64,000 bases of DNA from Macrostomum hystrix. Lineage: Eukaryota; Animalia; Platyhelminthes. Within the stretch, counting starts at the first letter, position 1; each line of letters begins with the position of its first letter. Location: the NCBI GenBank assembly GCA_950097015.1, contig CATNEN010000038.1, forward strand, positions 1,736,001-1,800,000. The letters are read 5' to 3'. Positions 1-34,290 of the stretch are shown here, in pieces. The translations under genes were made by a program, and so were the position numbers. Below the pieces are notes generated by a model. That model did not search any database. It saw only the letters and a program-made list of their open reading frames with translations, and was not told where the DNA came from.

Positions 1-210
1 CTAATTGTCATTATTCACAGGCTAATCGTCATTATTCACAGGCGAATCGTCATTTATAAAATTCTTAACGGAACTATTCCCGTGCTAAACGTCACATTTT
101 ATTCGCAGTTTTTACTATCACTATCAGACACAAAAAACTCGGATATGCTGTTTATTACCCTCGTATTAGTAATTAGTAATTAAGTGGGACGCCCAACCTC
201 CCTTTGCAGT

Positions 211-3200
211 GCTCAACTCAACTCTGGACAAGATTCTGCCTGCCGATGTGGTGAAGCAACTGCTGAGCAGCGGGTTGCCGCTCTCTGCCCTGCAGTCCAC
301 GCCAGTCACTCTCAGCGGGGTGAGTGACACTGCAAATGCAGCGAGTATCGAGTAGTGATAGTTTGAGTAAAACTTTTGGCAGACAGCGTAAAACTACGCA
401 ACGGTAGCAACGTTGCTATTAATTGAGCAACGGAAATGAGGGTTGAGAGGTGAGGCTCAACCTCCGAAGCTATATGTCTTATAGACAGAAAGCTAGGGGA
501 TACGCATAATGATAAATAACTATAATAATAATAATAACCGCTGGAGGGCTGCGAGCAATGGCACATCATCTGGAGACACTAGACGCGCAGCCAGAGAGGA
601 GGCAATCATGCCAATTCCGCTGACTCCTGAGCACACACGCACTGAGATACTGTACGCAGGCATACGCTCACACTGGTGTGTACATCTGCCCTGGCTTTCT
701 CATTGTCAGGCAGTGTACACATTCACTGTGCCTTGGTGGTTGGCCATCAAGGGCCTCAATTGCACGACAAGCGCCCCAAGCCTTCTCTCCGCGGCTGCGC
801 CCCAAATGAATGTGGCCTCGCCGCGGAATCGAGCTCAGGGACCTTGGTGCGAGAGGCAAACGCGTTTACCGCTCTGCTACGGACCCCCAGCGCACGCGCA
901 TACGAACTGTACACCTCACACCTGTGTGCGTATTTCGACGTTTGAGTGTTAAGCGGAACAGGCATGGCGAACAGCCTTCTCGCTGGCTGTGGCTTGAATG
1001 TCGTCAAAGCGACGCGCCAGCGCCCACAGCGCCCTGAAATTAATTCTACTATAAGCAATTAATATTACTATAGCAATCCAATAACGTGACAAACTCTTTG
1101 CCATCGATCTCGCAGCTTCTCCAGCTGCTGCAGGTGGACCAGGGCACTTCAACGGCCATTCTGGGCCAGCTGTGCGGTGGAGCCATGGAGCTGCGCAAGC
1201 TGTTCACGGCTCCAGCCTCGCATCCGAGCCTGCTGGACCAGGCCCAGGAGATCGTCTGCTCCAACTCTAGCGCGTTGGCGTCGCTCAACTTGACGCACTT
1301 TCTCAATGACGTAAGCGCAGTCGGGTTGGTCAGTTGTGTTTCTAAGAAATTCGATATGTGCAGCAAACCACTTTTTAGTATTAGTTTTTTACGAGTTGGA
1401 CTGATTTCATTGCGATTTTTTTACTAGAGAGCTTGAACCATGAGAGGTCGTAAGTTCGAATCTTAGGGGGGCGAGTGGGTCAGCGGCTAACGTCGCTGCC
1501 TCGCACTCCAAAGGACGCTACTTCGATTCACCCTTCAAGTCACGATTAATTTTGGGACTTGTTGGGGGGTTTGGACAGTAGCGACCGGCGAAGGTGCACC
1601 ATATTTCGTGCAATCAAAGCTTGAAATAACAGCTTCGCTCCTACCTTTCTGTGTGCCTGTTCTGCGTTGTGTGAGTTGTGTGCGTTGGCGCTGGGGCGTG
1701 AGACCTTGCGGGGGGTGGCTGGAGGGCGGGTGTAGACCGCCGCGCGCTTTCTGGACTTCCGTCAGCGCGATTGGATAAGTGTACACTCATCACCCGGCCC
1801 CCCTGAGGACTGATTTCTTATCAGCCTTCCGCCCCGGCTTGGTCTGCTATGTGCGTGTGGGGCTGGGGTGGGGGCCGGGCCTATTCTGGGTGCCTCCTGC
1901 CCTCCCCGGCTGGTCTGTGCTGCTGTGTGTGGTGCCTGCTCAGGGGAGGCGGCGCGATGGGTGCTAAGCGCCTAGTTCGCCGGTCTGGGGGCGTGCCGCT
2001 CCGTCGCTTGTGCGACAAGTGCCCCGGGCCCCCTGCAAATAGATAGATAGATAGAAGTTCGAATCTTACCCCAAAGGCAAACAAATAGAGATATTCAGCG
2101 ATTCTTTTCGAAGACCCTGGCGACAATGACCTAATATTTCTCTTTAGCAGAAGTCTGTAGCCTGTGCTCTGGATCTTCATGGCGATGGGTTGACTATTTC
2201 GGGAGATACAGAAAAAATGTGGGCATTGGGAATACCCCCGTTGTCCTTCTACTGTTAACCGTGCGGCTCGTGTGAGTAAGAATGATTTATATTTTATATG
2301 GATTGTAATTTGCAGTACTTTTTGACCGCGGCTTCCCTGAACATCAGCCAGCTGGTGCAGGACATTATGCGTTTGGCTGAGCTGTCCAATGGCAATGCGA
2401 CTAGCCCAATGCTAGCCCAGATCATGAGCATCTTTGCTGATCCGAGCTGGGGCACGTCAATTAGGGTGAACTCAACTCAGGCCCCAACGGCCAGGTGAGT
2501 CAAAAATTATGATGCAGACACCTGCAAATTGTTTGACTGCTGGAATCTTGAATGCTAAAACCCTGAAATCTCATTGTGCCACAGCCTGGCAATGCTGGCT
2601 GCTGCGATGGACAAACTGCCGCTGGGCCCGACCGAGCGTTCAGCCCTGCTCTTCGGCAGCCACTTCCTGCTGCTGCAGGCGGAGTCCCTGAAGCTGAAAG
2701 CCAGTGAGTCGTCGTCTATGGCCAGGCTGGTGTGGGCTTTAATGTGTGTTTCGGCTAAGAACTCTCTATAACTTCTTGCTTCCAGCCCTCAGTCAGGACT
2801 TCGTCAAGTTTCTGCTGACGGATGCTCGAGTCACGGCCTGGACCCACAGCGCCGCGGCTACCCTGCCTGGAGTTCTGGTGCAACAGTCGCTGCTCACAGT
2901 GCCAACACACGTCTACATGTTCGCTGTGAGTCCTTCCGGATTTTTTGTCATTTTAAAATGGGGATAGTGCTTCAAAGACGGTAAAGTCAATGAACAAAGT
3001 CCAACCAACCAACTCGCAGTACACTGAGGGCCTGGCTAGCCCGGCGGATGTCAAACGGCTTCTGTGCGACCAGACCTTACTGCAGGAGATGGTGGACCCG
3101 GACACGCGCAAAGTGCTGCTCGGCGGAGGCTCAGCTGCTATCAGCACCGTGAAACTGTTCTGCGACAACTCAGGCGTGTTTGTGGCTTTGTGCGACATTT

Positions 3201-6200
3201 TCAAAGCAAAGCAGGACACCATCAAAGTCCGAGCTGACCAACTTGTGAGTTCTGCATGATGTGGTTAAAAAAGATCTTCAGATTTTTCGTACAGCTTTCG
3301 CGATTCTCAAAGATTTCATTTTGGAAAAATAACTTTCGAAGCTTTTTTGGCTCCTAATTTTGTCGTGATGCAGTTGCTGGGTGATGGACACCTTTCAGCA
3401 TCCTCGAGCAAGACACGAATGGCAACAATCTTAACTATATAATTTCAGTCGCGGCTAACCAACTTCTCCGCTCTGCCCGCCATCGCCGATGCCTTCGCCC
3501 AGTGGAGTCAGTTGGAGGCCGAACAGAGGAGCGTACAGGTCACAAAGGGCACATGGCCCAAGCAAGCCATCGACCTGCTATCAATCCGAGTCAACGCGTC
3601 GTGCACCTCCTGCGAGACGGTGTTGGGCCAGTGCCAAACGGGCCTAGCGATGCAGGAGGTCGTCTTCAACATGGTGGCAGCGTACTACATGGTGGATGTG
3701 GCCAACCCGCCAGTGTTCTGGTGGTGGCGCCTGCCCATTGAAACCATGGTGCCCAGCATTTACGGCCAGACAGCTGGCCTGCTCTTGGCCAACCAGTGGG
3801 CTAGCACGACTCGCCGGGACGTCGTGATTCGTTCCTTCCAGACTCCCCAGGGTGCAACAGTGCTGGGCCTGTCGTTGCAGCTCGCCATGCAGATGCTGCA
3901 GACTCCACCGGCTGCTGCAATCGTTCCACAACAGCCCAAGCAGCCGCTCTGCAATGGCTCCTACCTGGCTGATTACATTCCAGCTGTGGCCTCATATCCG
4001 GCAGGTTTGAAGCTAAACATGAGCCTCTGCAATTTCTTGGCAATGCGACCGGAGCTCTCGGAACTAATGGAACTGTCGCTGAAGTCGTGGGCGTCAATGA
4101 CCGCCAACTACACGGGAGGAACCAACGAATCTTTCACACGCGCAATGCTCGCGCTGATGAACCAGCAGCAATTGTTCTCCTACGCTCTCTCCACTGCTCA
4201 GACTGAGTCCACGCTGAATTTCACGCTAGCTTCAACGCAGATGCAGCTGTGAGTACTTTTATAGCGAAGAAAATATTGCGGATAGGTCTATATGCATTTC
4301 TTTGAAAACATTGCAGGCTCTCACTGGCCTACGAGTTGTTCTACAGTGCAGCCACCGCGAACGCCACCGACCCCATCGTCTCGCAGGCCCTACTGGAGGC
4401 CAACTTTCAGTTTAATCTGCAATACCGAATCAACGAGTTTCTGTGGCAGTTCTTGACTGACCTGAACAGTAAGTACTTTAGTTTAGGCTCAGCTGCGGGT
4501 AATTAAAGGTGCTTTTCGGAAACTGCTAAGAATTACTGTTGTTTCGTGAGAAAGAGTGTTCTCAGAGCCTGCTGCAATTCTAAAGTGTCTCTCACACAGT
4601 TTTTCTCATCTAGCAGTAGTTCAAACTGATTATCCATTAGAATACTGCACATTGTGCATCAATGCTTAGCCTCGCTGCAATGCCCCACTACCCTCTGTTT
4701 TGTCATTTTCAGACACTCGAGATTTGCAGCACGCCGCCCTGAACTCTCCTGAGCTGACGGAGCTGATGTCCTCGCTGCCCCAAGCCGCCAAAGACTTGAT
4801 GCGCGCCGCGCTGGAAGGATCTTTGACGATTGTTCTGCCGTCGTCAGGAAGTGCTAATATGACGTCACTGTGTGCGGGCCTCGAGCCAGCCAGCCTGTTC
4901 GGAGCGGCTGGCAGTTTGGCCAGTGTGAAGCGGTTCAGTGGGGCCCTGTGCGCAGCGATTCGCGCAGTGCCGAGTGCCGCCATGGCCAAGTTCGGTCCCC
5001 TCATTCAACTCTTCGAACCAGCTGGAAAGGCCTCGCTGACAACTGCGCGTTTCAACGTCACGGCCGACTGGATCCTCACCGAGCAGGTCAGCCAGGCGGT
5101 GATGGAGCTGGCAAGGCTTCAAGTGACCGACATCTTGCCGGCTGCGATAAATGTCACAGATCTGACGGGCTTCCTCAATCAGTACGCTGCGGACTTCAAC
5201 GCACTGCTAACCAGCAAGTAAGTATTGGCGATTGGATCATTTGGCTTGAAGACTCCCAGAACTTTGGCTGAACTACTCACGCCTCACTGAACTCATTCTC
5301 CAATTCCAGTTTGACAGCTCTGCTTGAAAAATTCGGTCAGGTCTTGATGAAGCAGCTGCAGAGCAGTCCGATGATCGGATCACAGGTGCAGCAGTACATG
5401 AACAGTGCTGTGCAGCTGGCTACGCAACTCACGGCACTGTTGAAAGGTGAGACAAGTGGAGAATGCACTGAAAGAAGTATTAATAGAAAAAAACTACCTT
5501 CGTTTTAACGATAGCAAACAATGGTATTTCTATGAACTTGCAGACTTCAGGTGGTTCATATTTGTCCTTTCGTCTAGATTTACCATGGCCTTTTAATTAA
5601 AAAAGATTGGAAATTCCTATTAGCTAATGGTCTAACAAATGCTCAGAACCGCGCCCAGTTTGTTTAAATTTGCACAGCATGACGCCCCAACCCTTCTCCA
5701 AACACCGAGCCAGCCTCGAACTACAGTGCCACAGGACTGGTGTCTGGCACCGAGATGGGCCGCCTGGTGGCTCTGTTTAACCAGGCGCCCAGTCTCCTGC
5801 CCACCTTGCTCAAGACTGTCTACGATGCGCAGGCGAATCCAGCCGCTGCGGCGGCTGCGTGGGCGCCGGTGTTTGCCGATCCTGGACTGTTTTGCACCAA
5901 TCTGACCGTGTTCTCCCGACTGTTGAGCACACCTGAATCTGTGAGTCCCGCGGCGCTGCAGGCCGACCTATGTCAGGCGGTGGATTTCAACTCGACCGCC
6001 CTGCTGGCTCAGGTGTTTCAGCGACTGCCCGCAATTCAACTGCTGGTGAACCAGGTGAGTTAGGGTGGGGGCAAATGCTAGTTCAGTATACTATTATGAA
6101 CTATACCTTAATTGGCCTAAAAAGATTGAACCGATTTACCGAGAAAAGTAATAAAAAATTTGTGCCATAAACAGCCTCAGGTATCTCAACTGTTTTGCAA

Positions 6201-9200
6201 GCGAATGCTACCTCCTCGCTTGTCCTCCACAGAAAGCATTGTTTGAGTTTTACTACTAGATTGATCTACTTTTCATTGCTCCAGATTTAAGAGATTACTC
6301 AATGCTAGGTCTCTGGTCTCTCACTCTTTGGGGTCACAGAAAGCTTGTGCTCTCTAGCCAAAAAAAAATTTAGCAACGCGCCAAAGCAAAGCAAAAAATA
6401 GTTCTCAAGACCTGCTCTGGCAAGTGCGAGTTCGCTTTCGTCGGCGGACAGGTAAACTTGCCTAGCCTGCGCTTAAAGCATCACAATGGAAGCGGAAAGA
6501 ACGAAAAACTTCGGTTGCTCAAGATCTTGACTGAAATTAGCAGCCTGTACTAGGATAGTGGTAGGATAGCTTAGCTATGGCAGCAAAGCATGAGTTGCGT
6601 GGGTGACCCCGCTGTGACTAGAAAAAACAACAGACTATATTTGAATATTTTAAAGACCATAAGAATATATTCGCGAGTTTTTTGCACTATATATAATTGC
6701 ATGCATAATATTATTTAAAAAACCCATTGCTGATTAAGTTTAAAAGTTCTCAATAACTAGTTTTTCTATTTGCAGATACTTGCAATTTAAAAAGTTTAAT
6801 CGGAATATAACAGTTATAATGGTCGCAAGTGGTAGTTGGTACTGGCAACAATAAACCCGCCGTCAGTATATTAGCAATTCCCCCTGAGCACGCACATGCA
6901 CAGGGACACATACGCACACAAACTCACTGGTGGGTTCATTCGCCCTGACTTTCTCATCGTCAGACAGTGTGCACTCTCACTTTGCATAGGCCTTCAAGGG
7001 CGTAAATTATACGATAGATCTCAAAGACTTCTCTCCTTGGCTGCGCACCAAATTACCTCGTAGCCGTCGGGGTGAGTGGCAGAGCGGTTAACGCGTTTGC
7101 CTCTCGCACCACGGTCCCTGAGCTCGATTCCGCGGCGAGGCCACATTTATGTGGGGCGCAGCCACGGAGAGAAGGCTTGGGGGCTTGTCGTGCAATTTAC
7201 TCCCTTGAGAGCCAACTGCCAAGGCACAGTGAAAGTGAACACTGGCAGACGATGAGAAAGTCAGGGCCGATGTACACACCTGTGTGAGCGTGTGCCTCCG
7301 TACAGTATCTCAGTGCGTGTGTGCTCAGGAGTCAGCGAAATGGGCAGAATTTCCTCATCACTGCATGTGGTTTAATGTCACCGTATGATGTGCCATTGCC
7401 CGCAGCCCAACTGCAATTATTTTTTATGGCCTTTAATAGCCTTTCCGTAAAATCGAGCTTAGGACCTTGATGGGAGGGTCGGACCAATTACTTCACCAAC
7501 GCCATTCACCTCTATTGAATACGGAAAAAGAAGGGTTGCATAATTATTGCACTTTTCTCCTGCAGCTGAACTGCTTATCCACCGGCTGCACTGCCGATTC
7601 TGGTAACGCCACCTCCGCCGCCGAGTTGTTCGCGGGCATGCAGGCTACAGTTGCCGAGTTCCAGAATCTCGTGACGAAAATCAACCCCGGAGGCATTCGA
7701 TTGGAAATATTCAACTCCAGCTACCTGGCATTGCTTCTGAACCCGGAGTTGCAGCGATTCGTGGAGCTTGGAAACCGCACATTGGATGCCCAGTAAGTGT
7801 ACAGGAGCAATTAAATCACAGTTACTTGAGTGATTTAATAAATTAATTAAATTCAATAAATTACTGACTTTAAAAAACATAAAAACATCGTCTTCAGAAT
7901 ACAGACGAACATGAAAAATATTGGCACTCTGATCATTAACCTGATGGCGAGCATGAATATGAGCATGGCAACAAACCTGGATGTGGTGATGAAGCTGCTG
8001 GAGTGGCACCAGGCGCTGTTCGATGTTGTTCTCGGAGGCCCAGTGAAACTGGACTCTATGCTCAACCAAACCGTCGATGGTCAGCGTCTGTGGCGCCTGC
8101 TAACCTCCCTGCCTGCTCTGACCCAGGTGCTCACGCACACTGCAACCCAGTACCCGGCTCGAATTGCTCAACTGCAGATGGCCCTGACATCCAGCTTCAA
8201 TGCAACCACGGGCAGCTCGGTTCTGACTTCGCTTTGCAGCATGAATTTCTCAGAATTCCTTATGGTCCCGTCAGGAGTTGTGTTTGATCCGCGAGCTTTC
8301 CAAGATGACCTGTGCGGACTGAACCTAACCATGACTGCCACGCTGCCCCCGCCGCTCAATACTCTGTTTTCCATGACTGGAGGCGTGCCTCTGACGCCCG
8401 AGAGCTTGATGAAGGCGGTGACCACGGTGGCCAGTGGCAACTGGACCTCAGTGATGCAAGTCTGGATGCCGTTCTTTCAACAATGGTCGACTACGCTTTC
8501 GAGCATCACAGCGACGCCCTCTCTACAGCTGGCCTTCTACCAGCTCGATGCAGCCTTGGCCAACCTGCCGGCAAGTATTCTCGGTCCAGTGAATAGCGTC
8601 ATGTCGGTTGCCAATCATCTATTGGACCTTAGCTCGGCCAGCCTTAGCCATCTTCTAACGAGAAACTCAAGCTCAGTGGCCGACGCTCTCTACCAACTTC
8701 CGGAGACACAGAAGCTGCTTTATCTGATTAGCGAAAACTTCACTGAGATTATTGTTGGCGCAGCTTTTAACCAACGACCAGTGCAGTACCTGCTGACTCT
8801 CAACGAAACTCAAGCTTTTATGTACCTGTGTCTCAGTCAGAATGCCACCCTAATGGCGGCCATGGGAATGAGCAACTTCAGTTTTATGTCACCGCCTGGT
8901 ATCTGTGTCAATTGCATCATTGAGAAGCTCTGCTCAGTAAACCTCACGGCTTTACAACAGGAGACGATTGAATTTGGAAACTCACTCGTTGGAACATGGA
9001 GCTCAACAAACAAGATTACATTCGTCATTTTGGGCGAAAAATCGATGCAACTTCAGAATTTGGTCATGCAACTTGCTGCGAAGTCACGCGTGTCTCTGCC
9101 GGGCATGTTCGAGGCCGCTAACTGGAATGCCGCATTTGCACTGCTAGCCCCTAAGTTCACGAATTCCACAGCACTGCCAGACAGTGCACAGGAACTACTG

Positions 9201-12200
9201 CTCACGATCTACCTGTCCATGAAAGACCCCAAGGCTCAAGCAGCATTTGCGACCCTCTTGTCGAATGCTTTAGGCCAGTGGGCGCCTCGGCTTGAGGCCC
9301 TTGTAGCAACGAGAAACTTATACGCTCTAGTCAAGGGTATGCCGATTCTGGATGCACTCTACAACATGACTTTGCGAGATGGCGGCGATGCAATTCTCCG
9401 AGTGGTCCTGGACGCGGCTGTGCGCAGTCCCAGCAAGCTGGTGGAGCTGATTATTAACCCGACCGCTGCTGCGGACGCTTTTGGCAAGCTGTGCAACGGC
9501 AGTCTGGATCTCGCCTCTCTGCTGGCAATCAATGCCACCCAAGACACGCGCTCCGTGCAGCTGGCTCTGTGTCGCGTCATGTCCGACGTTGGAAACGTCA
9601 ATGCACTCAGCAGTCGACTACTTGAACAGCTGGGCCTGTCCTCGCTGCTTGCCCCTGACGGCGTTGGAAATTCATCGTCGATGAATTTGACGCAGCTTCA
9701 AGCTCAGGCGCAGGAGTTCTTTAAAACTCTTCAGGTAGGTTTTGCTCGAACGAATTATCGCCCGCTTTAACAGCGAACTGTACGAAAAACGTGGAAATTG
9801 TGGAGCTTGGAAACATATCTCAACTAATTTTTCACATTCGGATTAGCTTAAATGTACGTGAATTAATTGTTTATGGTACTTTAAATTGGCATTTATTACT
9901 TTTCAGGCACTCACGATGACATCAACAGGGGATCTGGCCCCGCAGCTGAACCTCACAGTCTACACCGAGCTTCTGAAACGCTACACACTTATTGGCACAT
10001 CGCCCAAGCCTGAAGACCTCCTGGGGTACTACAGCGCTCTGTACACCCTACTTAAGACTTTTCTGCCACCCGCGGACTTCCAGAGTATCCAGGGCGTCAT
10101 CGCTAGCTCTGTGAATTTCCTGCAGGCTCTTGCGGACTATGCTTTAGGCGCTGTAGACGGATCTGGCAGGCTGGAGTTAAGTCGTCTCGTATCGAACATC
10201 AGCTCAGCCGAAGCCATCCTGCAGCAGCTGCTGCGGCCGCACAATCTCACCGGGCTGCAGGTGCTCACAACAAAACTTCCCGAGCTCTACAGTCTGGTGA
10301 TGATGAATGCGTCAAGTTTGTGCAGCTTAGACATGAATGAGTACTTTGTTCTACCAGCAACGCTGAATACCAGGACGCTGCAGAGCAGCATCTGCGGCCT
10401 AGCTGCAGACTTTCAAAGCGAGATCATGGCCAACATGGACGCGGTGAAGCTGATGCAGGCGGTGAGTGAGGGTCACTGGTGAAAGCGCTAACGAAAGGAT
10501 ATTAATTGTGTAATGTTGCTTTCTTCATAAAATAAAACGTGATAGTAATAAAAAACTAATCAAGATGCTTCTTATTTACCAGATGGCCGGTCTATCCATG
10601 CCAAACAAGACCTTGGACTTCAACAGCATCTGGCAGTTGTACAGCACCCTGATGTCGAAGTCAGGCATGCTGACAACACTAAACAATGTCACCTACAAGG
10701 GTGTGGAAATTAGCTCTCTGCTGCAGATGAGTGCGCCAAACCTACAGACTCTGTTCCCTGACGTCATCACAGTGTCTGGCCAGATGAACCTGTGAGTCGT
10801 TTTTTACGCAAATGTGTTTTCTATAGCTGCAAGTTTTGATCTTAATTGATATTAATTTCATCACTTTATTTGATTTCAGAATCTTCGGCGTTGCGGACAC
10901 GATTGCAAGCAACCTCGACGCCTTGGTAGGAAAGGATCCGGTATCGGCCACGGTTCTGAAAGTCACCCAGGCCGCTCTGTCGGCAATTCAAGGCGTTCTA
11001 AAATCCTGGGGCCAGACTGGCGAGCTGAGCCTCTCGGTCATCTTTGGAAATGCGTCGCGCTGGATGGAGTTGCTCAGCAATACGACAGTCAGCGCCAACG
11101 ACATCAGCGCTCTGATCAACATGACACTTCGAGTTGATAAGGTCGGAAGAAAAACTTCTTTGCCTTTTTAGAAAGGAGCTTTTAGTATTTTACATTCCCC
11201 GAACATGATAAAATTTCAGCTTGCCGCCCTGCTCAGCAACCCAGCAGGCATTCCTTCCACCATCTGCAACTCGTCTAGCGGTTTCTCGAACTATTTCGCT
11301 GTCGGAGCTTCTGTGCCAGCCTTTGACAATGTGTTCTACATCATCTTCTGCGACGCTGCAGCCCAGGAGAAGCTGCGCAACGAGTTTCTCAAGCAGATGG
11401 GAATCGCAGCAATTTTGGAAGCCACTTCTAACGCCGGAAATGGAACGACAGTCGTCCTAAAAGACATTGTAGCTCAGGTTCGACAGCTCGTGGATCAGGT
11501 GGTGCTGGTAATCCAAAGACCCTTCGTATTCAATTCGAACGGCACAGTGATTAGCAGCCTGATGAAGCTGCTGGGCAGCAATGATGCCATCGCTCAGCTG
11601 GCCAAGCTGCTGCAGGATCAGTTCACTCAGTCGGCCACTGGCTTCAACTTGTGAGCAAAAGCCTCAAGAAAATTTCTTTTATAATCGTCAAACGTCGATT
11701 CCTGATGTTATATTTATTTACCTTTCCAAATTCTACAGCCTGCCTCCAATCCTGGAAGCCGCCTACAGCCTGTTCAAGTCCTCGATGCCGAAGGAAACAG
11801 CGCAGCTAGACTTGGGCATCGCAGTCGCCTACGAGATCATCGCACGAACCAACGCTGAAGTATCCAACCTTCAAGGCAAGGCGGTCACCATGGAAATGCT
11901 TCTCAGGCCGGACAATGTTTTGTCGCCTCTGCTCAAGTCGCTCAGTGCGACAGATGCCAACACGCTGACAATTCTGGTGCAGGCAGTTCTAAACAACACA
12001 GAGGTTAGCAGTTTTAGCTCACCTTCTTTAGCAAGCCTTGCAAAAACTGGTCGCGTGGGTATTTGTGGTACTTTTAATTGCGAGAGGAACACTTCAAAGA
12101 ATGATTCCATTTTTTCAAAGAATGAAAAAATAAACATTATATCTGATGCTGATTCTATTATAGTTCAACCGCTGGCTCAGCATGGGATTCACAAACGCGC

Positions 12201-15200
12201 TTTGCACGGAAGACCTGAACAGGTTATTTCTGCCCACCGTGCCGTTGAACTTGACTGGTCTGCAGGCCAGCCTCTGCACCTTATCAAATGCGTCATCTCT
12301 GATGAGCGCCCTGGGAGCAATGTTCAACTCAAAGAATTCTCTCGTCGAAATGGTACGCCGTTTATCTTAGTGAAGTTTCTTATGAATTTTGACAAGAATC
12401 ACATCACCCTTCTTATGACGATATCGATTTGCATCACTTCAGCTCACAACAATGACGGTCCGTCAGTCTGTATCAGTGACAAATCTGTACACGATAATCC
12501 TGCAACTGTCGAACAGTCTCCAAGGCGCGGGCTCACTGAACGCTTCGGCTCTGGACGCGAAAATTCTGTCAATGATTAGCGCCTTGCAGGCCGGCTCAAC
12601 TGGACTTTTGGCCAAGTAAGTTCGTAGAGTTTGATCAATTATTGCACATTTGCATAAGCATTGCATTGTTAAGAGATGCTAAATGCTAGATAAATTTTTT
12701 GCTACTAGAAGTAGCATATTGATATTTCAGTTTCTTTCGAATGCTTTTGCAATTGTGGGACAGAGGCTTCTTAGTTTTGAGTTTATATAAGCGTCAGCGG
12801 CAATGAGTTTTTTTGTCGCCAATAGCGAGCGATGAAGCTATATTTGTGAGCTTTTGCAAAGCAATGTATTTCCATAATGGAAGTTCTGGACATCAGAACC
12901 TAACTTTGCAGAATTTCTCGCTTGTCTCAAACACACAGTTACAAGAGTTACCTAAGCGGTTCCATGTCAGCACTGGCTCCACTTAACATGGGTCCTGGTG
13001 AGCTGGCCCTGCTAGGCGCTGTGGCTGGCAAGCTCGAGCAATCAGCTGGTCTGCTGTCATCAATCTACCGCATGGTGACTGGCCAAGGCTCTCCGGCAGC
13101 TTTTGTCGAGGCCCTTTCAACAATTGCGGCTGACCATCGTCTGGCGTCGACAATCGTCTTGGCGCGCGGCGCTCGACCAATGGTCGCCGAGATGTGCGGC
13201 AAGCTGAGCGCCGTCTTCCCGTCGCCAGCCGACGCTGCTGCTGTGAATGCCAGCATCTGCCAGACTCCGTCCGATGCCTGGTGGCAGGCGAAAATTAGTC
13301 TGGTCGCCACGGACCAGATGTTTGTCTTCCTGACTGGCGAGAACGCCACCGTTGTGGTGAGTTTGAATTTGAGTACATTTTAAGAACTTTAAATTATTTG
13401 ATTTCAAAGAGAACACGCCGAGAAGTCCATAACTGTATGGGCCTAGGAATTGCGTCAATTTCCTGATTTCTTTATTCTTAGGCGCTGCCCTGGAAAGCAC
13501 TAGAGCCAACCCTGACAAGTGTCCTGTCCCTCGGTGAGCTGCTGGCAACGGCACCAGCAGCAATTGGCAACTTCAGCATGCCTGCGCTCCTGGCTGCACT
13601 ACAGCAGCTCAGCGTGCAGCAGTCGCTTGGCCCAACCCTGGCCACGCTGATGACCCAGTCGATGTCGCCGGCTGACCAGGCCCTGATGCAAAAAGCCCTG
13701 GAGATATCAACCATGTTCGTGTCTGTACTGCTCACTGTTCATAACGACAACCTGACTAACGTGTTGGTTCAGCCTGGCGTGATCAAGCAGCTGATGGACG
13801 TAGCGAACTCCGGTTACTTCAGAGCCGAGATAGACGTCCTAATAAGCAGTCCCGAGTACGCGATGTTGTCTGGCACAGACTTGAAGAGCGTGCTGTGCAA
13901 TTTCAGCCACTTCGATTCTAGCATGCCTGGTGTGCGCACGAACTTGGCAGTGCAAAAGATGATGAGTCCTAACGACACACGCTTGGAATCAGAGCTGCAA
14001 AGCCTGCAGAGCTACATCTGCGAGGGAGCTCAACGCAACATGCTGATGCTGCAACAGCTTGAGAATGCTGCGAGCCTTTCAAAGCTCATTCGAGTAAGTG
14101 CCCAGCATGCCAGTAAGGAGAGCTGATGCTCAAGTGGTGTTGTTCAAATAAAAATAATGCCTTGCGAATGTTTTTAATCAGTGTAAGAATACGTCGATGG
14201 ATCTAATCAAAATATTGATAAATATGGGCTATAAAAAATCAACTTGCAGATTGCCAATAGCTTCAAAGGTATGAGCGTTGCCCAGTTAATGAAGGAGCTG
14301 TTGTCAGGCAATTTCAGCGTCGCTGGCATTTCGCAGCTGCTGTCAGATCCTAATGGTATCATGACCTTCATCAACCAGCTCGGTCAGAGCCTCATGCAGC
14401 CAATGAACTTCTCGTCTCCCGAGCTCATTCTGACGTACGTTGAAACCACTTTTTTGCTTGGAAACAATTTAAGCCGTGTAATAGCCACCTAAATTCTGGG
14501 TAACAACTGATTCATCAACCGTGTCGTTTCCACTCCTCCAGGCAAGCCTGCGGCCAACTGCAGGCTCAGACCTACGACCTGCAGCTGTGGAATGCCAATG
14601 GAACAGCAGTGAAGCTGCGCCATCTGCTGTGGATCTTGGCAAACAATACTGGTCTAATCGAGTCGGCCTTGTGCGATCTAGCCGCGGCCGATCTACCCGG
14701 CGCAGCGGCGAAGGTCACCCGACTTGTGCAGATGATGGCCAATCCAGCGGTGGCATCAGGAAGTGCCGACTGCGCCAGCTTGACCAAACTGCTTCTCAAC
14801 TCCCGTGTGGGAGCCTGCTATATGAATCAAACTGCGTTCTTCGAGAAAATTACAGCGTGAGTCAGGCTTGCATTAACGTGGCATCAAAGCGAATTTTTCA
14901 ATAAAAAAATGCCTCTTACGAGCGTATGAAATGGATTTCTATAAGCTTTGGCCAACAATATTGCAGTAAGCTACAGGACTACTCGATGTTTCTGCAACTG
15001 GCAAATCAGGCAGCTCAGCTGCAGACGGTGATTGGCTCAGACGCTGCTTCGTTCTTGGCCCAAGTGTTCAATTCCATTTCCAGCGGACTTAAAAGTGAGT
15101 CTTTTGATGCCCTACACTGTGTAGCATGCCTTTCGCAAAACAAATGCATGAGGCTATAATGATTGCCGCTCTCTTATTCAGACCAAGTAACAATCCAGAG

Positions 15201-18200
15201 CCTTCTAGCGAACTCGACGTCATCGCTAGACCAATTTGCCAGAATCCTTGATGTGTCGAAAGAGCTGTTCAATCAAGTGATCGGATCTACCATTATCTTC
15301 AACTCGGTAAGATTCTCGCCACATGCCATTGCGCTAATCAGTTATAAAAAGATCTAAATAGCCTTGACGCCATCCCAAACTCCCCTGCAGACGCTCATCG
15401 CATCCCTAACCGACGAAGCATTGTACAACGTCATCTGCTCTCCGACTAGCATTGGCCAGGTCATGAGCTTCCCGCCTGTGCTGGCGGTTAACATGACAGC
15501 GGTGTCCAAGGCACTCTGCCAGCAAATGCAGGCATCCGCAGCAGACAGGCAGAGGATCCTGCTGCTGATCCGTGCGGCGACCGCACCCGGTTTTGGCGGT
15601 CTGGACCTTAGCGGTTGGATACGAGCGCTGACTAACCTCAACAACCTTATGGCGCAGCTCAACCAGCTGCAGGCGATTCGCAGCCTGCTGAGCAGCTTCG
15701 ACATTCGCCGGATGGCCGAATATGAGGCGGCGATCTTGACCCTGATTCGCAGCTTCCCGGGCGAGCAAATCCAGCAGATGTGAGTTCTAAATAGACCCAT
15801 TGCTTCTCATGGCAATGAGATCAATCACTAGCCTAGCTGGATCACCTTTTCTTACAGTGGCTACTCTCTGGTGAAAGACCTTCAAGCGATTTCTGCTGCC
15901 CCGGCTTGGACTAGCCTGCTGGCCGATCTCAACACCTTCTTTAAGTCGCTTCGGCTGTTTGACTTTGCCAAGCCGTTGTTCCCGGTGAAATGTGAGTTTT
16001 TTATTGCAAAAAAATTTGTATGGCTCAATGTTTAGGTGGCAAATGCTAAAAAATGAAGCGAGTCTTAAGACTATGATTAAACTGAATTTCAGTGCAAGTC
16101 AAGGACTTTGTCGACAACCCAGCGGCTGTGACACAGTATCTGCTCACTCAGGGCATCCCAGCAGAAATATCCGGCCTGATTTTGAACTCCTATCTGTCCA
16201 CTGAACAGGTCAGTGGTACATCCTTTATTCACTTCAGTAAACAAAAAGGTAAGGTCAGAACATCAAACTTCTAGTCCAATTTATTTACATTTCAGCTATT
16301 CAACTTTTCGCTAAAACTGAGCCTTCCTGAGGCATTGTGCAACGCAGGCAAGCTGGAAAAGCTGATCGACTTTTCAAATGTGACCTACAATGTCTCCAGT
16401 CTAGTAGCTCAGTTGTGCGTGAACCTGACTCTGCGCGATATTGAGAACATCACCGAAACCATTCTCAGAATGGGCAACTTTGGAGCCTTCTTCACTAAAA
16501 ACCTGTCACAGCAGCTCATCAACAGTTTGCTTAAGAGCTCCGGTGTGACTGTAGCCGATCTGCAGGACGCGATTCAAGTAGTTCAGGACACCGGCACTGA
16601 GCTGCAGACCACTTTCGACATCATGAAGGAGCTAGCCAACGTGGTTTCAATTCACAATCCAGGCTCTGATAATATTGGATGTAAGTTCGCGCAAGTTTGA
16701 CAGTACTTTCGCTATCCTGAAATTGATGGGCAGTAAAATATTTTTTGCTCTAAGAAAAGTGAACTCTGCAAAACGCATTGTTTTTTGCACATTTAGCTCC
16801 CAAAGGTCTCGAGGGTGTCAGCGAGGCTGTCTGCGGCACTAGCGGAAAGTTCAACTTCACTTCAGTCTATGGCATCAGCCTCGGCAGCAGCAACAGCAAC
16901 AGCGGCGGTACATCTGGGCGCCGGCGCAAACGGCGCTCCACAGATGCGACCTCTTATGCCTACGAACTCGGCCCGCTGGCTAGCAACCAATTTTGCCGCA
17001 GCCTCTATGATCTCACCCAGCAGTCCACCGCCGGACGGGTCGGCTGGACCTACGTAAAGCCAATAATCCGTGGACGCGTAATTGTCACGCCGGACACCAA
17101 CGCGACCCGCTTCCTGATGAGCAGCGTTCAGGAGCAGTTCACAAAGCTTCTCAACCTCCAAGATCTGTCATCCAGCTTAGGTGGCTTGTTGCCTGCAGCC
17201 ACTGGAAGCTCAGGAGCCAGCGTGCTTTCAGGCCTTCTGTCAAATCCGCTTGCAAGCTCTGCCATCTCCAGCGTCCTTGGTTCGTCAGCTAACCTGACTT
17301 CGGTGCAAAATCTACTGAGCGTCTTTAGCGGCAACCAGAGCAGCAACTCCACGAGCACGAGCCAGATGCTGCAGCTACTTCAAAACTTCACCAGCTGCAT
17401 TGAAACTAGCCGTCTGGACTACTATGCCACTGGAAGCAGTCAGTATGACACTGCCGTTCAATCCGCCCTGTCAGAGAATCGGCTACTCGCTGTAGTGGCC
17501 TTCGAAAACCTGCCGGCTAGAAGTCGCCGCGATGTGAGCCCTGGAAGTTCAGGGTTGCCAGCGCACATAAAGTACACGATTCGGATGCCGCATGGAACCC
17601 TCTATCGAACCAACGCGCTCATCACTTTCCCGGAGGTATACGAGAAGCGAGACAGCTTCATGTTCGACTTAGCATATCAGCGCGGCTTCGTGCAAGTACA
17701 GGAAGCCATCGATCGAATGATCGTTCGCACACAGACAGGTCGCGACATGCCGCCCCAGCAGACCAAGCAGATGCCCAGTCCCTGTCTGGAGAATGACAAC
17801 ATGTTGCAGTCATTCGGAATGGCCATTCTGCCAATCTGTACCATCTTTATGTGGCTGGCCCCACTGGCCATTGCGATGCAGCAGATCATGTACGACAGGG
17901 AGCACCGGCTCGAAATTCCCCTCTTCCTGATGGGCCTGAGACCGAGCATCCACTTCCTCCAGTGGTTCCTGGTGCAGCTGCTCAACATGCTAATTCTCAG
18001 CGTGATCATCTCCGTGAGCTGCGTCTACGGCGGTCTACTGCTTAACACTGATCCAAGCATCTTGTTTGTCTTGTTTGCTCTGTTCTCGTTCAGCGTCCTC
18101 GGCTTCGGATACATGGTGTCGGCCTTCTTCACGACCTCCAGCGTGGCCTGTGTGATAGCCCTACTAATCTATCTGCTAATGTTTATTCCGTTTATCTTCT

Positions 18201-21200
18201 TGTCTTACACGCATGCTGACGTTGTCGCACTGCGTGCGGTCAACATCTTCTCGCCGACGGCATTCTCGCTGGCCGCTCGCTCCATTGTCACCATGCAGCT
18301 GGCCAACCACAAAGTCACGTGGGCGGACATCCTGACGGCAGCTTACGGAATGGAGGCTTACGGAAACTTCCTAGCACTGGCATTGGACGGTATCGCGTAC
18401 TTCCTCGTCGGATGGTACTTCCGCAATGTGCTGCCGGGCAAGCACGGAGTGCCGCAGCCGCTGCTGTTTTTCCTCACAGCTCGCTACTGGGGCTGCGACA
18501 GCTCCAGCAAGAAGTGGGACATCACAAACGGTGCTGGCGCGGTTGTCGAATTGCAGAATGTCAACAAGAAGTTCGGATCTAAGAAGGCGGTGGAGAATTT
18601 GAGTTTGAAACTGCGTGAAGGCGAAACAACCATCCTGCTGGGACCGAACGGTGCTGGCAAGTCCACTACAATGTAAGTCCAACTTATGAAATAAATAAAT
18701 GTTTTGAAAAAAAATCACAAGCCCATCGATTTGCTTCTCACAGAAACATGATGACAGGCCTCATCACGTGCGACTCCGGCAAAGTCATCGTCAACGGGTT
18801 GAACGTGGCCACCAGCTTTTACAAGCTTCGATCAACAATTGGCTTCTGTCCTCAGCACAATGTTTACTATGAAGAGTGAGTTTAGTTCAATGGGTAGAAT
18901 GTAATTAGCTAGTTTGAAGTATACTTTACAACTTAGGGGTAATGAGTGATTTAATGCGAGCGGTTACTGTAATGATCCAAAAAACTTTTTTCTCAGCATG
19001 TCGGTCAAGAGGAATCTCGCCTACTTCGGCTCTCTCAAAGGCTGCTCCAAGGTTGAGCTGCAGGTCATGCTGCACTCCCTGCGACTCTACAAAGTGCGCA
19101 ATGTGTCGGTCCGACACCTGAGCGGCGGTCAAAAGAGACGCCTCTCAATCGGCCTGGCGTTCCTGGGCAGGCCGGGGCTGGTGATTCTAGACGAGCCGAC
19201 AGCCGCCGTGGACCCCGAGGCTCGGCGCACCATCTGGGAGCTCATCAAGACGCACCGATGCACAACTTTGATCTGTACGCACGACATGCAGGAAGCCGAA
19301 GTCCTTGGTGATCACGTCGCCGTCATGATGGACGGCCGCATCATTGACAATAAAAGCTACACCGACCTGGCGGAAACCTGTCGCTACTCGGTCAGCATCG
19401 CCTCCGACTCACCGCACGCCCTGGCCGATGAACTGAGGGCGCAAAACCTTGCAACCTCAGAGCCAGCAATCAACGAGCGGCAGAAAAGGGTTCAAATGAC
19501 CTGCCAGAAAGAGGGCCGGCTTATGACTAGCCTGACATATGGTCTCGATCGCTTGAAAACTTCTAGACAGCTTCTCTCGTGGTTTTCCATCACCTGCTCA
19601 ACGGTGGCTGATTACTTCAATGGTCTGATTTTCGGCAAAGAGTTGGTTCAGGACTCGCCACAAAGCATCCACTATCAGAAGCGAGTTGGAAAGCCCAGCA
19701 GTTGCCTCGCAGTTGGTGCCCTATTCACTAAGAGATTTCACCACGCCAAGAGAAGCTGGATCAGCTACGTGGGCATGATGCTTCTGCCATGTATTTTCAT
19801 TGTTTTCGCCATGGGATCCACTCTGCTGCGACCGTCTTTCAGTCAGGAGAGCGCCAAACTGATACTAACGCCCACAATTTACGGCCCAGGAGCTGTCACC
19901 TTCCTGTACCAGGAGGCCGGCTTCCCTATGAAGGAGGCAGTGAGGTTGACACTTGCTCAACCGCCAGGACTCGGCACCGCATGTATGGCAGGTCCAGACA
20001 AAGGAAAGCTGTTATTCTACACCGCTGCCTGCAGGGATGCTACTGGCAGCTGGGTGAGACAGAATCTCGCAGCTGCAGAGTTGGCCAAGTACGACACGTA
20101 CCGCAACTGTACTTGCGGCAAATCATCGCATTACACGTGCGCGGACGAGTACTCCAAGGGCACCCCGCCGGATGTTCTGGTTACGCCAAGCGGCGACGTC
20201 ATTCATGAGCTGCGCGAGACGGCTAACCTGGAGGACTATCTGCTGCGTTCAACGACGCGCTTCAACCTCAGCGGGCCCCGATCTGTCAGCTTCGCTCCGG
20301 CAGGAAATCAGCGCTGGGGCGGCCTCCAGCTGCAGGCGAATTCCTCCATAATCTGGTTCGACAACCGAGGCTACCACACTCTGCCATCCTATATGAATTC
20401 CTACTCAAACACAATTCTCAGAGCATTTGTCGCTTCGTCCAACTATTCGAACTATTCCTCGGACTACGGTATCACTACCTACAACCATCCGCTGCCGATG
20501 CAAAGATCGCAGCTAAACACGGATACATTGTGAGCGATTCTTCTCCAGTGCCTTTAAATTCTCTTTAAACTTTGGTAAATAGAATCGCTCGTTTAGATTG
20601 CTGTCATAAAACCATAATCGCAACAAAATTTCCAGCGACCAGGCCATCAAGGACGCGGGCCTGGCCATGTGCATCGTATTCGCTCTCTGCTTTGTGCCGG
20701 CCAGCCTCTCGCTAACTGTGTCCAACGAGCGCGCTTCGGGCGAGCAGGTGCACCTTCGTCTGTACGGCGTCGGCGTTGCCACTTATTGGCTGACCTCCTT
20801 CGTATGGGACATGCTGATGTACCTGCTGCCTCTGGGAATCGTGATTGGCATCATGGCCGCCTTCCAGATCGATTTGTACACAGCAAACTTGAACCTGCCC
20901 GCAATTGCCATGCTGCTGGCTCTCTTTGGCTGCTCGGCTGTTCCGCTCAGCTACCTGATGTCCAGAGTTATGCGCTCTCCAGCCGGCGGCTTCCTTCTGT
21001 CCTTCTTCCTGTTGTTCTTCATCGGCATCGTGCTCTTCAGCCTGCTGCTGCTCCTGCAGTTCTACGTGAACTTCGCTAACAAAGACCTGACGTTGAAAGT
21101 ACTCACGTACGTCTTCATGGCTCTGCCGTCCTTCAGTCTCGGCAATGGAGTTTACCGCGTTGTGGAGAACCAGTGGAAGGCCTCCATCTTGAAGAGCTAC

Positions 21201-22802
21201 GGAGCAGACGAGTACATTAGCCCGTTCACCATGGCAATGGTGGGACCGCATGCTATTGCTATGGGCGCGGGATGTGTGGTCTTCCTCATCATCAACATGC
21301 TGCTCGACATTCGCTGCCGGATCCGCAACAGTCAGCTTCGCTTCTCATACTTGACTGACGGCGGCTCGGATGTCGGCGTCCAGGAGGAATTTGACAACGT
21401 CACCAGCGGGGCGAGAAGCCGCGATCCGATTCAGCTCGTCGGTCTCGGCATGAGCTACCGCACCGTTCGCGGCTTCCGCATTCAGGCGCTCGATAACCTC
21501 ACGATGTCTGTGCCAGAAGGCACCTGCTTGGGTCTGCTCGGTCCCAATGGCAGCGGCAAGTCCACGACCTTTAACATCCTCACTGGCCAGACAACTGGCT
21601 ACCACGGTCAGTGCAGCATCGAGGCGATGGGCTACTGCCCGCAATCGGATCCACTCGATAAGGAGATGACCGTCACCGAGACCCTGACATTCTACGCCAG
21701 GCTGCTCGGCTTGTCGAAGAGGGACCGAGAAGTGCAGCTCGAGCAGCTCATTGCGGCCCTGCGCCTACCTCCCAACAAGATCGCGAAGGCTCTCAGTGGT
21801 GGTCAACGCAGGAAACTTTCAGTGGCCATCGCCTTCCTCGGTGCGCCTCGTTGCATCCTCATGGACGAGCCGTCAGCCGGCCTGGACGCTGTGAGCCGAA
21901 CCGCGCTCAAACAGCTGATTCGCTGCGCCGTCTCGCAGGGCTCCTGCGTGCTGTTCACCTCGCACTGCATGGACGAAGTCGAAGGTGTCTGCGACCGAGT
22001 GGCCATTCTCATCGGAGGCCGGTTGCGCGCTATCGGCGGCATGGACCAGCTCAAGGAGCAACTGGGACGGAGCTTCACTCTAACGGTGCGAGGACCGAGA
22101 GATGAGAAGGATCGCCTGGCCAAGTTCCTGCAGAGCACATTCCCGAATGCCGAGTGCAAGGTGAGGATCAGGATCTCGGGACGGGATCAGGATCTCGGGA
22201 CGGGATCAGGATCTCGGGACGGGATCAGGATCTCGGGACGATTCTTTGGTGTCCGGAAGTTATTTGCAGACGTACATTGTATTTTTTCCTGCTAACAAGC
22301 TCCTTACCTTTTTCAAACAAATCTACCTAAGATGAGCGCCGCCGGAGTATCTGAGTTCGCTGTGCCCTTCACCACAAAGCTGCACGAGATCTTCAAAGCC
22401 ATGGAGACCATCCGTGGGCAGCTCTGCTCTGATTACACCGTGAAGCAGACAACTTTGGAACAGGTGAGATTTCTGAGAGCCGAAGCTGCTTTGAAAAAAC
22501 ATTTCTTGAAATTCTAGAGAATTCTGACACTCCAAATTTCGCAGGTGTTCCTGGAGCTCTGCAGCCACCAGCCCGACAGCTGGTGCGAGGACGTCCCCGG
22601 CGGGTCGGGCAGCACCCCGTCCGGCAGCGACTCGCCGCCATCGTCCAGCGCCGCCTCGGCCATCCTGACGAAGCATGGCAAGCCGATGGCCGGGCTCGAC
22701 TCGCCCGACGATTACCTGAGCTCCGAGCCGTCCATCACACTACGCTCCTTCGGACAGGACAGCGGCAGCGAGAAGGCCTACGTCTATAAGGTCTACCTGT
22801 AG
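211..22802 (+). CDS. ABCA: Giant ABCA-subfamily full transporter (ABCA12/13-like expanded first ectodomain), multi-exon, 5'-incomplete
   Basis: About 36 GT-AG exons chain the + strand ORFs. TMD1 lies in 17790-18430. NBD1 has Walker A GPNGAGKST (about 18640), LSGGQ and ILDEP (19120-19200). ECD2 has WFDNRGYHTLPSYMN and TYNHPL. TMD2 lies in 20640-21310. NBD2 has GPNGSGKST, LSGGQ and LMDEP. C-terminal TTLEQVFLEL, stop TAG at 22800-22802. No start codon or TM1 exon was found in the window. Confidence 0.9.
509..890 (-). mobile_element. tRNA-derived SINE family A copy (ABCA intron)
   Basis: On the minus strand: A-box-like TAGCAGAGCGG, B-box-like GCTCGATTCC and a (TAA)n tail. Homologous to copies at 7068, 27863, 45891 and 54095. 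Confidence 0.85.
895..1045 (+). mobile_element. Diverged 3' fragment of a SINE-A relative
   Basis: GCCTTCTCGCTGGCTGTGGC...GCCCACAGCGCCCTGAAATTA aligns with the SINE-A 3' end GCCTCCTCGCTGGCTGCAGG...GCCCGCAGCCCTCCTGCAATTA. Confidence 0.6.
1466..2054 (+). mobile_element. Long (about 590 bp) tRNA-headed SINE family B copy with 14-bp target-site duplication
   Basis: Head GGGGGCGAGTGGGTCAGCGG...TTCGATTC, (TAGA)n tail, TSD AAGTTCGAATCTTA at 1452-1465 and 2055-2068. A near-identical copy lies inverted at 27177-27774. Confidence 0.9.
6885..7055 (-). mobile_element. Partial SINE-A copy
   Basis: Matches the central part of SINE-A (CTGACTTTCTCATCGTCAG...CTTCTCTCCTTGGCTGCGC). Confidence 0.7.
7068..7425 (+). 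mobile_element. SINE-A copy
   Basis: Head GGGGTGAGTGGCAGAGCGGTTAACGCG...GCTCGATTCC and 3' end GTGCCATTGCCCGCAGCCC...TGCAATTA. Confidence 0.85.
22165..22221 (+). repeat. 19-bp tandem repeat x3 directly after an ABCA splice donor
   Basis: GGATCAGGATCTCGGGACG x3 following AAG|GTGA. Confidence 0.9.
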
Positions 22803-23039
22803 TGATACAGAGCTGAGTGATACAACTGACCAGTGCTGACGCCTGCAAACGATTGGATTATTTCATTTTTAATTTATTTTCCATTTGCTCATTCATCTGC
22901 GACACCGCCCTGATCTGTAAAATCATATTGGCCAATTGTTTAAATTTTTTACAGTGTCCAGGCGATCGGGGTGTGAAAAAATGTATTTTATGTACTCAAG
23001 AGAGCGCAAGAAACGGCTGCAGCCTTGACTGAAATCTCC

Positions 23040-23352
23040 TGAAACAGTGCTCGGGAAGCAACCGAGTTGAGAAACAGTGCTCTGGAATCAACAGAGTTCA
23101 GAAACAGTGCTCAGGAATCCACTGAGTTCAGAATTCACGGAGTCTGGAAACAGTGCTCAGAAATCAACTGAGTTCAGAAACAGTGCTCATGAATCAATTG
23201 AGTTCAGAAACAGTGCTCTGGAGTCAACTGAGTTCAGAAACAGTGCTCAGGAATCAACTGAGTTCAGAAACAGTGCTCAGGAATCCACTGAGTTCAGAAT
23301 TCACGCAGTCTGGAAACAGTGCTCAGGAATTCACGGAGTCCAGAAACAATGC
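23040..23352 (+). repeat. About 30-bp minisatellite downstream of ABCA
   Basis: Unit GAAACAGTGCTCAGGAATCAACTGAGTTCA. Confidence 0.9.
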
Positions 23353-23589
23353 TCATGCTGCAGTCAGTTTCTTCAGCTAGCAAAAAACCACCATATAAAA
23401 AAACTCGCTCACGCAAATTTCGTCGTCATGTCTAAGGAGACTCATTTATGCTTTATTTACCCGTGCCACAATGATAGTTTCATACGAGTGTTTTTATCAC
23501 CGATCAATATATAGCCAAGTTATATTCACAGCTAGATTGGCTTGAAAATTATATGGAGACTCTAATTGATTTTTTCGCAAATTCATCAA

Positions 23590-23845
23590 CAGCTTCGGAC
23601 TCCTGATTTAAAGGTCCGGGGTTCGATTCTGGACTTCACTGGAACAATTTGTGCCCTTGAGCGGGACACATAGCTCTGCGTTGTTTCAGTTCACCCAGCT
23701 GTTAAATTGGTATCAGCATCAGCTGGAGTAACTGAGGACGGGTGTAGCCTCCGCCCATGGACTGAACAGCCAGCCTTCATAACATGCGCCGCACGACAGC
23801 TGCGGCTGCACATCTGGCCTAATCTGGTTTGAAAAATCAATAATG
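23590..23845 (+). mobile_element. tRNA-derived SINE family C copy
   Basis: B-box GGTTCGATTC followed by GTGCCCTTGAGC...CAGTTCACCCAGCTGTTAAATTGGTATC. Related copies at 42950, 46700 and 58545. Confidence 0.75.
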
Positions 23846-24027
23846 AAATATGATTTGTGTAGCGACTGTTAAATGCGATTTCTCTTCAAGTTGGTTTTGA
23901 GTCATATTTTAAGTCCACTCGAAGGGCACCAATGGAAATAAATTGCAAGATGAAGCTACCGGAGTCTGGGAGGCGAGCGGGCCCTGCAAAATCCAAAAGG
24001 CAACAATGTGACTTCCTGATTTCCGTC

Positions 24028-24208
24028 TCCCTCTCTCCCTCCGCCCCTTCTCTCCCTCCGCCCCTTCTCTCCCTCCGCCACTTCTCTCCCTCCGCCCCTT
24101 TTCTCCCTCCGCCCCTTCTCTCCCTCCGCCCCTTCTCTCCCTCCGCCACTTCTCTCCCTCCGCCCCTTTTCTCCCTCCGCCCCTTCTCTCCCTCCGCCCC
24201 TTCTCTCC
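24028..24208 (+). repeat. 17-bp pyrimidine-rich minisatellite
   Basis: Unit CTCTCCCTCCGCCCCTT. Confidence 0.9.
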
Positions 24209-27864: not shown

Positions 27865-27926
<62 letters not shown>

Positions 27927-34200: not shown

Positions 34201-34290
34201 GTGTTTGAAAGCTACAAAAACTAATCGATAAGCAATTTCGGATGGGACTGAAATGGCAAAAAAGTTTATAAATTGTCTCTTTAAAAGTGT

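Follow-up and report, generated by a model that had tools for sequence, protein, structure and literature searches.

A giant ABCA transporter gene of the flatworm Macrostomum hystrix with a tandem array of units related to the ABCA1/ABCA4 lid

Results and discussion

The 64,000 bp of Macrostomum hystrix DNA analysed here (the window; positions 1,736,001 to 1,800,000 of contig CATNEN010000038.1, assembly GCA_950097015.1) contain all but the 5' end of a gene for a giant ABCA-type protein, whose first extracellular domain (ECD1) carries about sixteen tandem copies of a unit of about 220 amino acids (aa). Sequence comparison identifies this unit with the apical lid of ABCA1 and ABCA4 and its flanking helices, and the intron phases show that the array arose by tandem duplication. 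Our preferred reading, in which we place about even confidence, is that the protein is a full-size ABCA transporter whose roughly sixteen lid copies, of about 220 residues each, are arranged in a ring that serves as a tethered lipid store.

The gene and its transcript

The gene model has 36 exons (210-22802, plus strand), all of its introns are GT-AG, and its one stop-free frame encodes 5,103 aa; the 5' end lies beyond the window edge. Transcript contigs come from four public runs of one study, their kind unrecorded; they are short-read assemblies rather than single molecules, and only contigs that skip introns were counted. One spliced contig of 16,852 nt runs without introns from exon 1 (position 210) to position 20000, up to which the window was compared, and its offsets agree exactly with the model at 210, 3449, 7898, 16797 and 18997. 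Introns 1-12 and 14-28 are observed as contig joints, introns 13 and 29-32 are backed by contig pieces or offsets, and introns 33-35 are predicted. Because this contig spans exon 1 to position 20000 without introns, the upstream exons are part of the ABCA gene; the alternative of a separate upstream gene, which the initial annotation of this DNA had raised, is ruled out by the one contig and the one frame. That annotation had counted about 3,300 aa ahead of the conserved core and a protein of more than about 5,100 aa, and both figures stand: exons 1-30 total 3,285 aa ahead of exon 31, and beyond the 5,103 aa inside the window the four runs show a further 1,316-1,403 nt of transcript ahead of position 210. 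Exon 1 starts at 210 and not 211. If the contigs extend to the 5' end, the whole protein has no more than about 5,570 aa.

An ABCA core occupies the C-terminal 1,800 aa, with two transmembrane domains (TMDs) and a pair of nucleotide-binding domains (NBDs) in one chain and the Walker A, signature, Walker B-Glu and H-loop motifs intact in both NBDs. Transmembrane helices (TM) 2-6 and NBD1 are encoded at 17798..19387 (plus strand; Pfam PF12698 and PF00005), and TM7, the second extracellular domain, TM8-12 and NBD2 at 19730..22073 (plus strand). The best matches among solved structures are ABCA1, ABCA4 and ABCA7 (E 2e-58 for ABCA1). The database proteins nearest to it are fragments from Macrostomum lignano with 65-79% identity, among which P0017 is 79% identical to model residues 3157-5103. 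We note that the M. lignano counterpart is present as the fragments P0001-P0004 and P0017, of which three bear the names of Ephrin_rec_like, F-box and ANK proteins; these misnamed fragments align throughout with the M. hystrix ABCA ectodomain.

The repeat array

The array (exons 1-30, 210..16680, plus strand; 3,285 aa) has no transmembrane-like peak. It is rich in N-glycosylation sequons, as had been seen initially, with 79 in 3,290 aa against 30 ± 5 in 500 shuffles. Gaps of 21-32 aa separate adjacent cysteines in 15 of 41 cases against 4.6 expected, and none of 20,000 random placements reaches this number, which excludes chance spacing. The first cysteines of the units recur with a median period of 217 aa, giving a repeat of about 220 aa and excluding as the repeat the short module (hC-x(20-40)-hC, 20-40 aa) of the initial annotation. 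The fourteen Cys pairs quoted there, as "at least 14" modules, all lie in one reading frame; the pair C1354/C1388 and a four-Cys segment had been overlooked, so the window holds 16 Cys-pair units, 15 of the standard type and one atypical. One further unit probably lies upstream of the window, judging from the relatives described below.

The internal repeat is not detected by self-BLASTP alone and requires profiles. With leave-one-out profiles, 10 of the 16 candidate units beat all 200 Cys-fixed shuffles, and units 2, 3, 5, 7, 12 and 14 fail, 4-32 of the 200 shuffles scoring as high. With a cross-phylum profile made from 491 units of other phyla and no Macrostomum sequence, 11 of the 16 reach 13.8-44.0 bits, whereas none of 61 controls, shuffled or reversed, exceeds 5.8, so the modules do share profile similarity. 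Pfam gives no match for exon 13 or the relative P0004 and only sub-threshold matches for P0001; the ESM Atlas yielded a single lead, weak and bacterial (0.76), and no usable match thereafter. The Macrostomum copy is less charged than its giant invertebrate relatives (12% vs 18-21%).

Homology of the unit to the ABCA1/ABCA4 lid

In a hemichordate relative the last unit can be aligned with ABCA1 starting at residue 129, both cysteines falling on cysteines, and counting from this alignment the Cys pair of the unit corresponds to ABCA1 C195/C215. TM1 and the first unit of an annelid relative align with ABCA4 1-255. A profile of the two last units matches ABCA4 105-250 (E 9e-15) and ABCA1 116-241 (E 8e-6). 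Fish ABCA1 (42 and 34 bits) and amphioxus (30 bits) rows have one unit match each, the best of 139 reversed control sequences reaching 8.8 bits. The region homologous to the unit is ABCA1 ~129-240 and ABCA4 ~105-250, with the same Cys pair; ABCA1 and ABCA4 have one such lid and the Macrostomum protein about 16.

In ABCA4, residues ~138-271 are described as the apical lid (bioRxiv 10.64898/2026.06.25.734683); lid and tunnel are hollow and the lid is mobile (PMC7932691; PMC8219669), and it is unassigned or poorly resolved in ABCA4 maps (bioRxiv 10.64898/2026.06.25.734683; PMC7932691; PMC8219669). The Cys pair, placed in the tunnel proper by the initial annotation, falls instead in the apical lid, and the unit includes the flanking helices. 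The path of homology from unit to lid runs through the relatives rather than directly from the window, because a window-only profile missed ABCA1 and ABCA4 among PDB sequences (designed armadillo proteins only, E>1), as did the relative P0013, which has internal units only, when used as query.

Intron phases

The introns independently establish the tandem duplication. Four intron positions recur: three precede the first Cys of a unit, a phase 2 intron by about 100 aa, a phase 1 intron by 55-60 aa and a phase 0 intron by 15 aa, and one of phase 0 follows the second Cys by about 25 aa. ABCA4 introns follow c.302, c.442, c.570 and c.768 (PMC7544654); of these introns, 3-6, the first three precede C205 by 104, 58 and 15 codons and the fourth follows C230 by 26, with the same phases as in the window, and the exon-intron frame of the unit is that of ABCA4 exons 4-6. 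Twenty-four of the 30 ectodomain introns share the phase of an ABCA4 intron of this set and lie no more than 6 codons from its offset, whereas random placement gives 2.4-2.7 on average and never more than 10 over 20,000 draws; the offsets were taken from ABCA4 after the pattern had already been seen, and the Cys pairs were chosen by the analyst. Because phases and offsets recur unit after unit, the array arose by tandem duplication of a four-intron block; together with the profile similarity, this bears out the ancient tandem amplification of an ABCA1 ECD1 segment that was originally proposed.

The individual units

All units are on the plus strand, and the bit scores given are leave-one-out and then cross-phylum. 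The Cys pair of unit 1 (C56/C84) is at 1173..1259 (27.7 and 20.8 bits). Unit 2 (3065..3193; 3.7 and 0.4 bits) is diverged and has all four unit-type introns; its first Cys is C263, and alignment favours C305 over C295 as the second. Unit 3 (3950..4030) is also diverged, with 9.6 bits, matched by 6 of 200 shuffles, and 0.6 bits. Unit 4 (4871..4951; 15.9 and 13.8 bits), unit 5 (5893..5973; 15.0 and 35.6 bits) and unit 6 (8235..8315; 23.8 and 36.9 bits) are followed by unit 7 (8829..8933), the C1354/C1388 pair with an extra CxxC, which fails at 4.1 bits in the first profile and scores 18.4 in the second. A model of unit 8 alone (9492..9572; 21.3 and 31.2 bits) is all-helical, with a mean predicted local distance difference test score (pLDDT) of 68.6 and 78-92 in its core. 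Next come units 9 (10321..10395; 30.6 and 29.5 bits), 10 (11265..11351; 17.4 and 44.0 bits) and 11 (12203..12277; 25.6 and 29.0 bits). Unit 12 (13195..13260; 3.3 and -1.0 bits) is diverged, its period and one unit-type intron fitting the array, and unit 13 (13896..14021), with a longer loop, scores 19.6 bits (0 of 200 shuffles as high) and 3.4 bits. Unit 14 (14549..14818; 8.2 and 1.0 bits) is the atypical four-Cys segment, and an extra Cys cluster at this position is found also in several mollusc and annelid relatives. Unit 15 (15436..15519; 15.3 and 42.8 bits) precedes unit 16 (16338..16418; 14.4 and 34.7 bits), the positional counterpart of the single ABCA1/ABCA4 lid.

Relatives and phylogeny

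A search of 1.84 billion proteins with the window profile gave 14 matches, all bearing the unit; 10 of these were looked up, and the nine that are named belong to hemichordate, annelid, mollusc, echinoderm and nemertean species. Among the matches listed from a search with the core (the best 120 of 507 long ABCA proteins), repeat-bearing relatives occur in five other phyla and have about 10 to 27 units, so that with the flatworm the spread is six phyla. The median unit period is 215-229 aa in 13 proteins, and complete repeat-bearing rows have a normal ABCA N-terminus with TM1 and C54/C75/C81. The unnamed giant ABCA proteins from Ptychodera as well as from echinoderms, molluscs, annelids and nemerteans (for example XP_071835863.1 and XP_070556625.1) share with the Macrostomum protein the layout of TM1, repeats and core, the ~220-aa period and a furin-type site; they are annotated only as uncharacterised or ABCA1/12-like. 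In Ptychodera (P0005 residues 140-2070, and P0006) there are highly similar unit copies, apparently recent duplications, and unit types alternate in P0005. The starfish giant ABCA proteins P0038, P0045 and P0047 also bear Pfam PF00059, a C-type lectin domain. Outside the giant clade, the starfish ABCA1-like P0069 and P0081 have two lid units, which suggests a separate lid duplication.

In a tree of 32 hand-picked rows (TMD1-NBD1, rooted on ABCA3-like rows, with one ABCA13 and without ABCA2, ABCA7 or mammalian ABCA1/4/12/13), the rows with repeats group together (98/95), Macrostomum being on a long branch, and this clade is sister to ABCA12/13 (100/99). With this set of rows the vertebrate ABCA12/13 sequences fall sister to all repeat-bearing invertebrates; strict orthology would predict them nested among the deuterostome repeat-bearing genes. 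A quick tree of 46 rows gives the same split, with ABCA12/13, against ABCA1-like and ABCA3-like rows.

Human ABCA13 has 5,058 aa, and ABCA12 is a glucosylceramide transporter. The ABCA12/13 proteins, the nearest branch to the Macrostomum protein, are full transporters with an outsized ECD1 and one lid unit adjoining the core. Among the matches listed, the 63 vertebrate ABCA12/13-type rows show at most two unit matches each, a number that one of them reaches. A profile-profile scan covering one ABCA13, from gecko, and no human ABCA12/13 finds the last unit clearly in that ABCA13 (24.9 bits, probability 90%) and in ABCA12 at 72-78%, and only traces of other units (probability at most 9%). Repeats as clear as those of the invertebrates are thereby excluded in ABCA12/13: the enlarged ECD1 noted initially shows only one clear unit. 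Bird, reptile and fish ABCA12 N-terminal regions (P0093, P0097 and related rows) have several Cys pairs 22-28 aa apart, one of them at the first-unit position, with weak profile support.

Geometry of the array and its possible function

In ABCA1, C75 and C309 form a disulfide (bioRxiv 10.1101/2021.05.23.445323). Counterparts of C309, C355 and C504 are present in the ECD1 core of the Macrostomum protein, those of C309 and C355 at 16832..16996 (plus strand) by alignment to ABCA1. The distance from C81 to the first-unit Cys is ~120-126 aa in 16 relatives, and from the last-unit Cys to the C309 counterpart it is 99-116 aa in these and 100 in Macrostomum, much as for the single lid of ABCA1. Since the first and last units are spaced from the base much as in ABCA1, the array probably forms a closed loop of lid-bearing helical hairpins, both ends of which would sit atop the tunnel. 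The "very long conduit" of the initial annotation is disfavoured, both end units lying only ~100-125 aa from the loop-closing base cysteines, and a simple end-to-end tube is incompatible with ends so tied. A conduit could still be built as a two-stranded, out-and-back hairpin carrying lipid tens of nanometres to another membrane or an outer coat, which the inclusion of the flanking helices and the hollowness of ABCA4 tunnel and lid (PMC7932691) would suit; no asymmetry between early and late units was seen, in analyses not aimed at asymmetry, and we consider such a bridge unlikely.

Under the tethered-store reading, phospholipid or sphingolipid would be moved by ATP hydrolysis, as in ABCA1 and ABCA12. 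The array would exit and re-enter at the top of the tunnel, its units side by side and each Cys pair a disulfide stapling one lid, to form a glycan-coated belt with a greasy inner face. Lipid would gather in this belt, which would stand in for the free apoA-I that serves ABCA1 and could, for example, help to load secretory granules. ABCA1 passes lipid to a free apolipoprotein. A built-in lipid acceptor, as initially suggested, is a plausible possibility.

Two predicted furin-type cleavage sites follow the array, site A (RRRKRR, 16919..16939) and site B (RSRR, 17519..17530), both on the plus strand, and the Macrostomum protein is unlike the other giant invertebrate relatives in having both. Each of the 41 repeat-bearing rows has R-X-K/R-R in one of two exposed lumenal loops after the array (shuffling gives a chance of 0.056 for a row), these windows having been picked after the motifs of the Macrostomum gene were viewed and the rows being related, four of them isoforms of one gene. 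The arrays themselves, 124,771 aa in all, contain a single such motif. In the tested windows a furin-type site is absent from the two fish ABCA1 rows; 18 of 69 other rows do carry one. Cleavage would give two mature chains, and because the sites follow the C309 counterpart it would leave the array held in the membrane by TM1. That conserved sites follow the array and are nearly lacking within it would also suit a precursor that is loaded, cut off and secreted as an apolipoprotein-like particle. Release is, however, opposed by the retention of TM1 on the N-terminal piece and by the absence of any conserved second site seen before the first unit, and we regard it as quite improbable.

A rather doubtful, though by no means negligible, alternative is that the array is a heavily glycosylated spacer, or a scaffold for sorting or protein interaction, in which only the unit over the tunnel touches lipid and the others target the pump to a vesicle or coat a surface. 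The 79 sequons, a unit number that varies from about 10 to 27, sequence drift to ~20% identity and the long region retained by ABCA12/13 without clear units all fit this, as does the requirement of the long N-terminal region for vesicle localisation of mouse ABCA13 (PMC7948424). The Cys pairs, unit length and hydrophobic pattern, however, are kept in nearly every copy across phyla, which exceeds the need of a spacer.

Several points weigh against the tethered lipid store and the lid homology behind it, among them the indirectness of that homology and the furin-type sites of other rows given above. Five of the 16 units (2, 3, 12, 13 and 14) are weak (at most 3.4 bits) in the cross-phylum profile. 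The one-unit model has no fold match in the PDB (the lowest E value is 2.4 and the highest Z score 3.7), a failure that is uninformative given the poor resolution of the lid region in structures, and a single-sequence fold of the three units of exon 13 is unusable (pLDDT 38). Helical amphipathicity is 0.280 against 0.236 ± 0.007 in shuffles, a difference that cannot tell lipid binding from an ordinary helical bundle. TM1 and C54/C75/C81 lie beyond the window and are seen only in full-length relatives. ABCA4, which has the same lid, is an importer. Finally, a hand-off role of the ECD tunnel is without direct validation even in ABCA1 (PMC13161189).

We suggest tentatively, as a possibility that falls short of likely, that the ancestral bilaterian gene of the ABCA12/13 branch encoded a pump with a built-in apolipoprotein, a furin-matured belt of 10-27 lids filled with lipid like a tethered high-density lipoprotein disc, and that the giant N-terminal regions of vertebrate ABCA12 and ABCA13 are eroded remains of this belt.

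Other features of the window

A ~590-bp element in intron 2 of the ABCA gene (1466-2055) has a 96% identical inverted copy at 27177-27773, and its high contig depth suggests a mobile element. A dispersed ~380-bp repeat, with copies 78-87% identical, is found in introns 1 and 11 and in intergenic DNA (506-888, 7069-7427, 27895-28276, 45892-46065 and 54097-54273). Two inverted RING-finger (C3HC4) genes, each a single open reading frame, lie at 24826-25866 (plus strand) and 28763-29787 (minus strand) and are 99% identical over 995 bp. The other neighbours are a tubulin gene (30653-32050, minus strand), an NSD-like PHD/PWWP exon (44634-45755, minus), an MFS transporter (52262-52942, plus), a DEG/ENaC channel (54539-56296, minus) and a Pcf11-like gene (56952-62566, minus). 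Minisatellite arrays with periods of 16-40 bp are found at 22165-24208, 32372-48035 and 59396-61956, the longest being 79 copies of 30 bp at 38087-40429.

Significance

Giant size in the ABCA family is already known from ABCA13, whose N-terminal region is described as having no known domain (PMC7948424). By title and abstract, the literature gave no description of tandem lids, of their four-intron origin or of the conserved furin-type site, supplements and subscription papers being outside that search. No part of ABCA1 and ABCA4 is less well understood than the lid, which carries many disease variants of uncertain effect (bioRxiv 10.64898/2026.06.25.734683; PMC7932691), and here the lid appears as an independently duplicable module. 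About 500 natural copies are enough for modelling the lid and for testing it as an isolated lipid-binding domain. The array also suggests, in a form that can be tested, where the long N-terminal region of ABCA13 came from, and it defines a widespread class of invertebrate transporters, listed in databases as uncharacterised, split or misnamed, that is amenable to RNA interference in a flatworm laboratory model.

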